Shown: positions 20,892 to 48,151, counted from the first letter of the stretch. The stretch is 64,000 bases of DNA from an uncultured Verrucomicrobiae bacterium (GCA_963739345.1 CAVUAA010000001.1:859749-923748), one strand, 5' to 3'. The notes: generated by a model from the letters alone, not told the origin. Translations and numbers: made by a program.

Positions 20892-21444
20892 TGAGATACC
20901 CGGCGTTCATCGATTTCATTTCCATCTCCATTGCCCGGCTATAGGCTGGTCCACTGATATAGTGCTCCTTAAGGCTAAAACCATTCGAAGATGGGAGCTC
21001 CCGAACATCATAGTCGGACTCCTTCCCCTTGTGCTTTAAACGAGCAAGAACAGACACGGGGTCGCCCTCGGAACAGTAATTTACCACCCTGCCCGCTTTA
21101 TGCCTAGCGATCCAGACCGGCCCACCATAAGTTACGACTATCATTTGAGACCGGACGTTAGGGGGTAGTAAGTTCAGAGCCCAATCCAACACCATCACCC
21201 CTTCGCTGTGGGCATGGGCATAAACAGTACCCCCTTCACCAACTGCCTTCCAGTCTTCGAGCAGATCGTTCGCCGCCTGGTTCACGACCTCCCAGTTAGG
21301 ATAGCTCCCATAATACCCGCAGCACTCGTGAAAATCGCTCCAAAAACCGTCGGATGGATTATAGGTATACTGAAATTCATCGACCAAAAACTTTTTGCTA
21401 ACTTCATCAACAAACACGGCCACCTCTTTCTCAGAGGTCAGCAC
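20884..21444 (-). CDS. alpha/beta-hydrolase (lipase/esterase-like) module, probably the displaced C-terminal toxin domain of RHS2
   Basis: The order Ser-Asp-His fits a catalytic triad: nucleophile-elbow-like AHAHSEG (Ser80), SEGDPVS (Asp128), KEHYISG (His161). The frame stays open upstream of the annotated GTG (…YRHRFFNGVLTSEKE), so the first strand of the fold lies upstream of the GTG start, in sequence that overlaps the RHS2 tail. Confidence 0.5.
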   Translation of the reverse strand: MLTSEKEVAVFVDEVSKKFLVDEFQYTYNPSDGFWSDFHECCGYYGSYPNWEVVNQAANDLLEDWKAVGEGGTVYAHAHSEGVMVLDWALNLLPPNVRSQMIVVTYGGPVWIARHKAGRVVNYCSEGDPVSVLARLKHKGKESDYDVRELPSSNGFSLKEHYISGPAYSRAMEMEMKSMNAGYLNG

Positions 21445-24400
21445 GCCATTGAAAAAGCGGTGGCGATACGTTGGATGAAGTGAGCTGTTGGTATTCGTCG
21501 GGGGTGTAGGGTTGGCCTTTGAGGGCGCAACTTTGGCGTATTACTCGCTCCTTGAGATTGCTCTCGTCTAGGAGCTTGATGCTGGCAAGTTGCGTGCCGC
21601 TGCCAACGGTTGCTGTGCCACCGTGGCGCATGACGGTGGCGGCGGTGACATGCTTAGCACGCCCCTCAAAGGTGAGACTAAGTTCGCCCCAGAGATCGCA
21701 GCGGGAGAGGGGTGCGTTGAGGACGTAGACGTAGAGATTGGAGCTCTCTTCATAGCCTTTGGGATCGGGGGTGAGCCAGCGGCCAAGGGTGGGATCGTAG
21801 TAGCGGCGGCCAAAATTGGTAAGTTTGGTTTCGGGGTCGTACCGCTTAGAGCAGAAGCGGTAGGGGTTGGGGAGGGTTGAGGAGGTGAGGCAGGAGCCAA
21901 AGGCGGTGTAGGCGTAGGTGGCGTGGGGGGTGCCGTTGAGGTCAAGGAGGGTGGAGACCGATCCGCGGTGGTCGTGAATCGGGAGGTAGGAGGTGCCGTC
22001 GAGCTCGATGGAAATAGCTGCCCCTATCTCGGCTCCATGGCCGATTCCAAGTGCACGGAATTCGATGAGGGAGTCGTCTGCGTCGATGGCGCCAATCTCC
22101 ATCCGGTTGTCGTAGAGGTAGCGGTGGTGGGCAAGTGTTTGCCAGGAGTCGCCGTTGCGGATTTGGGTCTGTTTGGTGAGGCGGCGGTCAAAGGGGTCGT
22201 AGGTGAGGGTGATAAGGTGGGTGGCTGTTTCGACGGTGAGGAGGCGGTTGAGGCCATCGTAGGTGTAGGTGGTGTTGGGACGGGTGAGTAGGCATCCTTG
22301 AGGATCATAGGTGAGAGTCTCGCTGGAGGTGGCGCGGAGCTGGTTGAGGGCGTCCACCTCCCAGTCGCTCTCATCATGGACAACTCGGTTGTGGAGCGAG
22401 TCGTGGGTGTAAGTGTGAGATTCAACGCCTGTTTCGGCGGTGAGCTGCAAGAGGGAGTCATAGGTGAAGGTCGATGGGGTGTCGTTGAGGAGGTAACCAG
22501 TGAGATTTCCGGCTTCGTCGTAGGTGATTTGGATCTGCTCGAGGGGCGTAGTTGAGATGCTGGTGATGCGACCGAGCTTGTCATAGGTGGTTGTTATGGT
22601 GCCGGCGGTGCCGGGTAGCTGCTCATCACAGATGTTCCCCTCGAGGTCGTAGGTGGTGTAGAGGTGTGAGTAGATTGGGGTGTTTTGAGCGTCGTGCCGT
22701 GTGACGGAGCGGAGATTGACGGCGTCGTAGGTGTAGACGACGCTCGACTGGTCGGGGAGGATAAGCCTGGTGCGCCTCCCTTGAAAATCGTAGGTGTAGG
22801 AGAGATGTAAGCCGTTGGCTAGGGTCTCTGAGAGGAGGCGATTGCAGGGATCGTAGGTGCGGGTAGTTGTGCCGACGTTTGAGGTAACAGAGAGAATGTT
22901 GTCGTTGCCGTCGTAGGTGTAGCGGTCGTTGAGATTGGGGCCGGTACGCTTTGTGATGCGGCCGAGGGCGTCGTAGGTGTAGATAAGGAGTGTGCCGTCG
23001 GGGCGGCGGAGTTCGGAGAGCTCCCCGTCAGCATTGTAGCGGAATCTGGTGACCCGCACCGTGTCGGAGCCCACTCCTTCGGTTTGCATACGGAGGTGAC
23101 CGACGGGGTCGTACTCCCAGCGATTCTCAACAGTCCGTTCGGGACGATCGAGTGCGAGGACTCGATGCACTTCGCTAACGCGGTTACCACTCAGATCAAA
23201 ATAGGAATCGGTCTGCAGGACAAGGGTCCCCATGGGATCGAGTTTTTCCACTCGGAGGACATTGCCGCGGGGGTCGTGGTAAGAGAGGGTCTGGTTTCCG
23301 GCAGGATCAATGGTGGTCTTGAGAAGGACGGGGTGCTCTTCGAGGGTAGCATTGTGATCGTACCGTATGGTGGTGACCTGTCCGAGAGCATTGGTAGAAG
23401 AAATCGGGTTGCCAAGCAGGTCGTATTGAGTAGTGCGCACGTTGGCCTGTGTGGCCGAGTTCCAAGAGACTTCTCGACGCAAGTTGCCGTCCATATCGTA
23501 GGCGTACTCTGATCGACTGTGGGTGGTGTCCGATGAGTCGGTGATCTCTTCTCGCACCACCCTTCCTTGAGAGTCATATTCCCAGAGAGTGGCGGTGTAA
23601 TCGTCTGCGCCATTCCCATACCACTCACGCTCGCTCCCCTTCCGACCAAACACATCGTAGGTGAGACTACGCCTGCGGTCGGCTTGAACCTCTTCGATCA
23701 GCCGGCCAGCTCCATCATAGATGTAGCGGGTTTCCACTCCATTGCCGTCGATCTCGGCAACCTTCAGTTCTCCTTTGTAGTGGGTTTCCCGGTGTGATAG
23801 GTGCTCGCCGCCTGACGAATACACATCGATAGAAGTGGGACGATCGCGGTAGTCACGCTTGTAGGTGGTGCGCGCGCCATTACGAGCTGTCTGCTCGACC
23901 AAACGGCCGGCCCGATCGTAGAGAGAGGTTTCAGATGTCCCATCTGGATAGTGGACAGCGGTCACCTCCCCACGGGCGTTGTAGGTGCGGCGGGTGATGT
24001 AACCCCGTGCGTCGGTCTCTTCGACCAATCGATCCAACGAGTCGTAAGAGCGATGAATGACCGGTTCGATCCAACCGTCGGGAGTGCGCATGAATGGCTG
24101 AACCTCTTCTGCAACATTGCCGCAGGGGTCGTACTCGAACCAGGTAGAATTGCCACACAGATCGATTTTCTCGATGACCTGACCGAGCAGATCGTAGCGG
24201 TAGTTAAGGCCAAGGCTAGTCCCGAAATGGTCCAGCTGTGTGGTATGGATTCGCCGATTGGAGAAATCGTAGGTGTGATGGGTGTGGTGAGTAGATAAAG
24301 GGCACCACTGCTGGATGAGGTTGCCGTGCAGGTCATAGATGAAACACTCTTCAGCCAAGCCCGGCCCCACCTCTCTGATCAAGCGCCCACCCCGATCATA

Positions 24401-46807: not shown

Positions 46808-47965
46808 ATGACCGGTAATAGCAAGCAATCAGGTGATAATTTTCCACAAACCGCTAACTATCAGGCGCTAGCCAGACGCTACCGTCCGCAACGATTTGCC
46901 GATGTCCTTGGTCAAGAGGCGATCGTCACCACCCTCATCAACGCACTTCAAGGGGATCGACTCGCCCACGCCTATCTCTTTTCTGGTGCTCGCGGCACCG
47001 GAAAGACCACCCTCGCCCGCATTCTGGCCAAAGCGATTAACTGCGAACAACGGCAAGATGGCGAGCCGTGCAACAGCTGCCCCTCCTGTCACGAGATCAC
47101 CTCCGGCGCCTCCCTCGACATCCTAGAAATTGATGGCGCCTCCCACCGGGGCATCGATGACATCCGACAGATCAACGAGACCGTCGGCTACGCCGCTCCC
47201 AAAGGGCACCATAAAGTCTACATCATTGACGAAGTGCACATGCTCACCAAGGAGGCGTTCAACGCCCTCCTCAAGACCCTCGAAGAGCCCCCTCCCAAAG
47301 TGAAGTTCTTCTTCGCCACCACCGAACCGCACAAGATTCCCCCCACTATCATCAGCCGCTGCCAACGCTTCCAACTCTCCCGCCTCACTCCCGAGCTCAT
47401 CATCACCAAACTGCGCGCTGAGTGCCAGGAACTGAGCGCCACCATCACAGACCCCGCCCTCTCCCTCATCGCACAAGCAGCCGAGGGGGGCATGCGCGAC
47501 GCCGAGTCCATCCTCGACCAAGTCCTCTCCTTCCACGGCCAGGAAATTGACGAGCAAGCTGTCGCCGACGTCCTCGGCCTCGCTCCTAAGACCACCTATA
47601 TCCGTCTCGATGAGGCGGCCAAAACCCACGACCTCTCCATCCCCTTCGACATCGTCGACGAAGTCTTCTCCTCAGGCCGCGACCTCACCCACTTCATTAC
47701 CGGCCTCATCGAGCACCACCGCTCCCACCTCCTCCACGCCATCAGCAACACCCCCACCCCTTACACTCGTGCCCAACTTCTCACTCTCCTTGATGATTTG
47801 TTGCTTGCACAGGAGCGCTTCCGCCACGCCCCTTCCAAGCGCATCGCCCTTGAGATGATGCTCACCCGCATCGTCCGCACCCCTCGTCAAATCCCTCTCG
47901 AAGAGCTCGTCGACCGCCTCATCTCCCTCGAGTCCCGCCTCGACTCTCCACTGCCTCCTCCGTAA
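46808..47965 (+). CDS. dnaX: DNA polymerase III subunit gamma/tau (C-terminal 48 codons continue in the +1 frame to 48110)
   Basis: YRPQRFADVLGQE, GARGTGKTT, zinc module CNSCPSCHEI, IIDEVHML, SRCQRF. After the TAA at 47963-47965 the +1 frame reads KAAPKPQPKPVPAPEQNKVATPQSRYDTLIRFAAVELDGRVENARSRR* (stop at 48108-48110), followed by a T7 run. Confidence 0.88.
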   Translation: MTGNSKQSGDNFPQTANYQALARRYRPQRFADVLGQEAIVTTLINALQGDRLAHAYLFSGARGTGKTTLARILAKAINCEQRQDGEPCNSCPSCHEITSGASLDILEIDGASHRGIDDIRQINETVGYAAPKGHHKVYIIDEVHMLTKEAFNALLKTLEEPPPKVKFFFATTEPHKIPPTIISRCQRFQLSRLTPELIITKLRAECQELSATITDPALSLIAQAAEGGMRDAESILDQVLSFHGQEIDEQAVADVLGLAPKTTYIRLDEAAKTHDLSIPFDIVDEVFSSGRDLTHFITGLIEHHRSHLLHAISNTPTPYTRAQLLTLLDDLLLAQERFRHAPSKRIALEMMLTRIVRTPRQIPLEELVDRLISLESRLDSPLPPP

Positions 47966-48151
47966 GGCCGCTCCAAAGCCTCAGCCCAAGCCTGTACCTG
48001 CGCCGGAGCAAAATAAAGTAGCGACCCCTCAGAGTCGCTACGACACCCTCATCCGTTTTGCCGCTGTCGAACTTGACGGCCGCGTTGAAAACGCTCGCTC
48101 ACGCCGCTAGCGATTTTTTTCTCGCTCAGCTATTCTGTTTTCCAAAACCAT

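Follow-up and report, generated by a model that had tools for sequence, protein, structure and literature searches.

Genes whose coding sequence is divided between two reading frames have several well-described counterparts. In the essential gene dnaX, Escherichia coli uses a -1 frameshift at A AAA AAG and Thermus uses transcriptional slippage; in this gamma/tau recoding, which takes place at an A-rich slippery run, the long tau form is read in the 0 frame and the short gamma form after the shift. In prfB, +1 frameshifting takes place at CUU UGA C with an upstream Shine-Dalgarno-like element. Frame breaks may also be artefacts: indels that shift the frame persist in Nanopore consensus sequences, above all in bins with less than 40x coverage (PMC9262707), and Nanopore G insertions outside homopolymers are on record (10.1101/645903). 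Here we describe a stretch of 64,000 nucleotides (64 kb; the window) from an uncultured Verrucomicrobiae bacterium (GCA_963739345.1, CAVUAA010000001.1:859749-923748), in which four genes, namely a groEL paralogue, a phosphohexomutase gene (pgm), dnaX and an Rhs-family gene (RHS2), are broken. From comparison with homologues, we lean towards single-base consensus errors as the cause in groEL, pgm and dnaX; RHS2 may be in genuine decay. Long-read (Nanopore/PacBio) indel artefacts have the same appearance: single-base breaks in otherwise intact conserved genes, at about one per 16-20 kb, that give split gene calls.

The affiliation of the window is chlamydia-like. The best named relatives of its DnaX come from Waddlia, Parachlamydiaceae and metagenome-assembled genomes labelled “Chlamydiales bacterium” (approximately 50-58% identity). 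The nearest relative that we fetched, L081 (GCA_041166445.1; 54% GC, compared with approximately 56% for the window), has a DnaX with 62-64% amino acid identity and shares the gene order SNF, CxxCxxCC, pgm, ..., DEAD, SDR, 7TM-HD, ..., dnaX, ybaB, ..., ptsI, HPr, hprK, comEC, NDH2. Pfam annotation covered approximately 50 open reading frames (ORFs) of the window. The original prediction held that four genes are each broken with the downstream part continuing in the +1 frame, and this is borne out by the Pfam coverage and by relatives in which each gene is a single ORF. For groEL, pgm and dnaX, all relatives are single-frame, L081 included, which supports consensus error. Each of these three genes carries exactly one lesion, with the downstream motifs intact; constraint downstream of the breaks has not been lost, as neither degraded motifs nor extra stops are seen. 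For groEL and pgm, removal of a single base restores the spacing of the homologues exactly (compared with 7-10 homologues). The parts of the three genes are as follows.

32473..32712, + strand: 5' part of groEL, frame 0 (Pfam Cpn60 positions 1-50), ending at TAA 32710-32712
32695-32701, + strand: groEL break interval (GGGCAGC), from residue spacing against the homologues
32702..34042, + strand: 3' part of groEL, +1 frame (ORF 32594..34042; Cpn60 positions 50-488/490)
38171..38699, + strand: 5' part of pgm, PGM domain I, frame 0 (ORF 38171..38935; Pfam)
38700..39875, + strand: 3' part of pgm, domains II-IV, +1 frame (ORF 38631..39875; Pfam; single-frame in relatives)
46808..47965, + strand: frame-0 ORF of dnaX, 385 amino acids, domains I-III (Pfam), ending at TAA 47963-47965
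47961..48110, + strand: +1-frame tail of dnaX, a Pro/Lys-rich linker followed by the conserved motif SRYDTLIRFAAVELDGR / SRYDTLIRFAAVELDG, which is found in chlamydial DnaX proteins

The two parts of groEL lie in a single frame at eight chlamydial loci. At the junction the homologues have M-x2-EV (NMGVSM(G/A)KEVV), and the window reads ATG-GGGCAGC-GAA GTG, so that 7 nt stand in the place of two codons, a net gain of 1 nt. There are five possible sites at which a deletion restores the frame: the G4 run is one of them, and the removal of any of four other bases also gives a sensible G-(S/R/H/Q). The break and its +1 continuation were thus correctly predicted, but the G4 run at 32694-32697, to which the break had been assigned, is only one of five candidates. 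With one base removed, the product aligns to the NCBIfam GroEL equivalog over its full length (positions 1-523/526; 662.7 bits; cutoff 582). The downstream +1 ORF extends over 482 codons without further stops.

For pgm, a single frame is found at 16 of 16 chlamydial loci and in L081 (17 in all). The homologues have the spacing PPHD-x5-EV, and the window reads CAC GAC CAG GGG ATC ATC AGC A GAG GTG, that is, five codons and one base between HD and EV. Since frame 0 is needed through GII, which matches the homologues, and the +1 frame is needed from EV, the extra base falls within AGCA (38696-38699). This is not a homopolymer, and the nearby upstream G4 run (38686-38689) is excluded; the position agrees with the break at about 38690-38700, with +1 continuation, that had been predicted. 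The enzyme keeps its catalytic motifs TASHNP, DPDADR, GAEESYG and RPSGTEP, and the downstream +1 ORF (414 codons) has no further stops. In a genome scan with pgm, the source genome itself is not in the collection and the closest relatives there are only 44-51% identical in protein, so that the junctions are not comparable at the DNA level. A metagenome DNA scan for the pgm junction, with 3 or 4 bases allowed at the break, gave zero matches. No independent copy of the source genome was found in the protein collection, by exact look-ups of window proteins or in the metagenome DNA scan.

In dnaX the break separates domains I-III from a short C-terminal tail. All 14 chlamydial DnaX proteins that we read have the tail (S/R)-(Y/H)-DT-(L/I/V)-x-x-F-(A/T)-(A/S)-VEL-(E/D)-G near the C-terminus, and in six relatives (L001, L002, L004, L007, L008 and L081) it is read in the same frame as the rest of the gene. 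In the window the tail motif is in the +1 frame, where an ORF of 49 codons is open and a stop codon stands at the usual distance past the motif. The shift is confined to 47942-47965, bounded by the end of LESRL (47941) and the frame-0 stop, an interval that contains the predicted break at about 47955-47965. The linker length varies among relatives, so that lesions of more than one size would account for the dnaX shift. As to its surroundings, a T7 run (48114-48120) comes just after the +1-frame stop, and a gap of approximately 220 nt (48111-48329) separates this stop from ybaB (48330-48638); in L081 dnaX and ybaB abut.

The fourth gene, RHS2, is of a different kind. As in the Rhs/YD polymorphic toxins, a signal peptide and a DUF6531-like N-terminus are followed by RHS repeats, a core-end DPxG...DLWGE motif and a lipase-like C-terminal domain. 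In contrast to its homologues, in which the toxin domain is fused, RHS2 is interrupted twice and as written has neither a full cage nor a cage-linked toxin. Its parts are as follows.

25946..26230, - strand: N-terminal fragment of RHS2, 94 amino acids, with the signal peptide and the start of DUF6531 (Pfam positions 3-43/74), ending at TGA
21431..25945, - strand: core ORF of RHS2, 1503 amino acids, with RHS repeats (Pfam RHS_repeat, 2.4e-59) and the core-end motif ...DPKGYEESSNLYVYVLNAPLSRCDLWGE
21469..21504, - strand: interval of the +1 shift, containing a C5 run (21500-21504) and lying upstream of a T5 run
20884..21468, - strand: putative lipase-like alpha/beta-hydrolase toxin domain of RHS2, +1 frame, called as a 186-amino-acid ORF from GTG 21444

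The continuation from RHS2 into the hydrolase in the +1 frame, as originally proposed, is confirmed by homologues in which the C-terminal domain is fused. One of them, P0122 (1790 amino acids), spans both frames: its residues 4-1578 align in the RHS frame (43% identity) and its residues 1584-1789 in the +1 frame (34%). From its stop-to-stop translation, a full HMMER search found 234 remote homologues of the hydrolase frame, most of them at the extreme C-terminus of proteins of 1400-1900 amino acids, and more than 50 have it as the toxin domain that ends a long Rhs protein; a word-indexed protein search with the merged RHS tail and hydrolase returned the self match only. In an alignment of 17 sequences, H-S-x-G, D and H are invariant, and the first conserved strand has the form (V/L)R(I/V)x(F/Y)xNG. 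The segment RHRFFNG, which spans the T5 run, belongs to the hydrolase frame and fits this first strand; the shift is therefore not at the T5 run (21452-21456), where it had been placed, but upstream. The RHS-frame match to P0122 ends with PYTPDE (to 21494) and the hydrolase-frame match starts with PTN/YRHRFFNG, at or before 21468. The only start codon in this frame, GTG 21444, comes after the first conserved strand, and the 186-amino-acid ORF therefore cannot be an independent gene. The linker of RHS2 is approximately 8-10 residues shorter than that of P0122, and two lesions would fit and are equally possible: a 1-nt insertion, which may have been in the C5 run (21500-21504), and a 3n+2 deletion. 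Matches of the domain to known hydrolases are weak (PDB lipases at E = 0.01-1; Cutinase or Lipase_3 in 5 of the 17 members), and single-sequence searches of Pfam and PDB gave nothing useful. A hydrolase identity for the C-terminal domain seems plausible.

The second interruption of RHS2 is at its other end. The 1503-amino-acid ORF is without a proper start, and the 94-amino-acid ORF directly upstream is in the same frame, separated from it by TGA 25946-25948. P0122 aligns straight across this codon (...EQIRTYIKPYATELQIWLDEEDGGSTLFEGADEW against ...EQIRTEVLGGL-stop-ELQIWWESNGGGSTLFEGADCW); the stop falls inside a conserved xELQIW segment, and the other Rhs gene of the window, RHS1, has W at the position. 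We rejected a reassignment of TGA, which is an ordinary stop in the window and terminates 15 of 40 genes. Judged by this alignment, the TGA is a nonsense lesion and not an indel. RHS1 itself (3248-8401, - strand) is intact, with approximately 1675 amino acids counted from the first Met; it shares 33% identity with RHS2, from which it differs in the C-terminal domain. A small ORF after RHS1 (2795-3244) has a weak DUF2691 match and may be an immunity gene, and two small unannotated ORFs (19829-20365 and 20397-20906) follow RHS2.

Do the breaks share a signature? The original prediction saw a uniform series of single-base insertions, two of them at homopolymers, and this part of it fails. If +1 and -1 shifts are equally likely, the agreement of all four in direction has p = 0.125, which is not meaningful, and the TGA in RHS2 (25946-25948) is a fifth lesion that differs in kind. 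On the favoured reading, the shared +1 direction is a small-number coincidence or a platform bias, not a biological signature. As for homopolymers, the pgm break is outside any run, the RHS2 site was mislocated, and in groEL the G4 run is one of five options. Runs of at least four bases number 906 in the 64 kb, one per approximately 71 nt, so that a junction interval of 7-36 nt will often include part of one by coincidence. We individually checked long runs, namely C9 in a metallophosphoesterase gene, C7 in murC-ddl and in pgm, and A7 in groEL, and all are in frame in intact ORFs; the C9 run (34973-34981) is the longest in the window. Pfam coverage is complete in each remaining conserved gene; neither it nor the comparison with L081 revealed -1 breaks or further splits in conserved genes, and across the four break sites no shared motif or recoding signal was found. 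The sequence CAGC or CAGCAG does occur in three of the four junction intervals (32695-32701, 38693-38699 and 21480-21490). This observation is post hoc; it might point to a consensus error tied to sequence context or to a methylation motif.

Three further candidates for broken genes were rejected. The ykgJ-like gene (37773..38186) is intact, and its apparent match to the SNF N-terminus is an antisense artefact. The metallophosphoesterase pair (34462..35391 and 35318..36109) is not a split gene, as the enzyme is complete. The hprK gene of L081 is intact as well.

If the breaks in groEL, pgm and dnaX are extra single bases left in the assembly consensus, through errors of the long-read type or of low coverage, the three genes would be ordinary and intact in the organism itself. 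RHS2 would stand apart, since it has two independent lesions of different kinds, and may be a truly decaying accessory toxin gene. In dnaX, which is essential and whose tail motif is kept in all homologues read, a real loss should be deleterious. The assembly gives circumstantial support: a contig of 1,252,598 bp with insertion sequence (IS) elements and two Rhs genes, whose proteins are held by NCBI and ENA only, fits a long-read assembly from a single source. The suggestion of insertion-biased long-read errors thus stands in part: consensus error is the likeliest explanation for these three genes, with their single lesions and otherwise intact sequence, but the insertion bias is not what the literature describes. 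Published long-read consensus errors are dominated by homopolymer deletions, in runs of more than four bases (PMC9262707; 10.1101/645903). Here at least two breaks (groEL and pgm) are net insertions, and this departure from the published profile is one of several points that weigh against consensus error. The breaks do not track homopolymer length, the pgm insertion lying outside any run. Long runs are correct: of 83 runs of at least six bases (16 of length 7, two of length 8 [A8 and T8] and one C9), none coincides with a break. The nonsense codon in RHS2 is a substitution, which errors of the indel type do not explain, and one nonsense to four frameshifts is a normal mix in young pseudogenes. 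In addition, the IS elements fit a genome in flux.

The same points bear on a possible but doubtful alternative, in which all five lesions are real and the genome is at an early stage of erosion, with the groEL paralogue, pgm, the dnaX tail and RHS2 recently inactivated or truncated. The window resembles young pseudogenes of host-restricted bacteria in its frameshifts and nonsense codon set against intact orthologues, in the two transposase genes at its left end, and in the two types of lesion in RHS2. The breaks are not at long homopolymers, and three of the four fall between domains (in the linkers of pgm I/II, of dnaX and of the RHS core and toxin), where a protein may withstand a split more easily. 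Unlike in such pseudogenes, three of the four genes are core genes with one lesion each, no secondary decay and intact catalytic or binding motifs; dnaX is essential with a tail motif conserved across the phylum, the relatives are all intact, even the nearest, and the other genes of the 64 kb are undamaged. A GC content of approximately 56% is also unlike that of long-eroded genomes. It is conceivable, though improbable, that the extra bases occur in part of a mixed population and that the consensus took minority or chimeric alleles, with intact alleles coexisting. Variants that still segregate would look like this, with single recent lesions in genes that are otherwise intact, and the assembly is apparently from uncultured material, with no second copy found; four such picks would, however, be needed within 27 kb.

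Decoding is a very improbable explanation: programmed +1 ribosomal frameshifting or transcriptional slippage would restore the frames, and dnaX would yield a short frame-0 and a full-length shifted product. In its favour, the frames beyond the breaks are perfectly kept, dnaX recoding is known from E. coli and Thermus, and in dnaX a PPP stretch (CCU CCU CCG UAA G) leads up to the frame-0 stop, where the shift would probably occur; both products are possible if the ribosome shifted +1 at CCG UAA G. In contrast to gamma/tau recoding, however, the window needs the shift for the long form, an inverted arrangement, and there is no A-run in 47942-47965. As compared with prfB, a stop is at the site only in dnaX, and a slippery sequence, a stimulator and conservation in relatives are all missing. 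The four sites lack a shared motif, a slippery P-site codon capable of +1 re-pairing, an upstream Shine-Dalgarno-like element and an A or T run; no relative shifts frame at the break positions, and in groEL the shift must precede the frame-0 stop by at least three codons. Hungry-codon +1 shifting at CGA, AGA or UAA was dropped, since CGA and AGA are not rare codons in the window and the idea was post hoc. It is tempting to imagine a lineage in which a low level of +1 frameshifting at non-canonical sites is tolerated or put to use, with dnaX the inverse of the E. coli gamma/tau system, but we regard this as highly unlikely.

By Pfam, the rest of the window comprises a peptidoglycan/division cluster, the two Rhs genes, two transposases at the left end and a run of housekeeping genes. 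The cluster is as follows.

8412-17695, - strand: murF, mraY, murD, a LysM protein, ftsW, murG, a murC-ddl fusion and an ftsQ-like gene, a complete peptidoglycan/division cluster with full Pfam coverage

Mobile elements are unusual in small chlamydial genomes. The transposase pair adjoining RHS1 (1-1134 and 1753-2670, - strand) consists of a Mutator-family gene that runs off the window edge and an IS4/IS5-like DDE gene that is complete. Two tandem DEAD-box helicase paralogues (41043-42278 and 42463-43779, - strand) occupy a place where L081 has a single copy, and the gene at 41043-42278 overlaps a convergent unknown ORF (39872-41191) by 149 nt. A SUKH-1 (SMI1/KNR4) immunity-type protein (53761-54543, - strand) is encoded between comEC and hprK, and L081 is without it. 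Also present are a FliS-family chaperone gene (62556-62921, - strand; Pfam 2.7e-13), here in a chlamydia-like genome, and a HEAT-repeat protein of 1055 amino acids with a C-terminal cyclic-nucleotide-binding domain (28673-31840, - strand). Long stop-free antisense ORFs face the ykgJ-like gene (37798-37990), ybaB (48164-48601) and the 5' region of groEL (31896-32690, - strand). These give misleading tblastn matches and could be mis-called as genes.

The effect on annotation can already be seen. The public protein collection (NCBI and ENA; the contig of 1,252,598 bp) holds the 385-amino-acid DnaX stump and the 186-amino-acid “hydrolase” as separate singletons, as expected from the earlier warning that automated annotation of this region would mislead. 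The main value of the finding is for quality control, and biologically the locus is ordinary. If the lesions were real, they would place a chlamydial lineage unusually early in gene loss, with an essential replication gene among those affected; the window contains nothing that calls for this reading. Metabolic or essential-gene inference for the lineage from the sequence as it stands would list pgm, a GroEL and full-length DnaX, in error, as absent or truncated.

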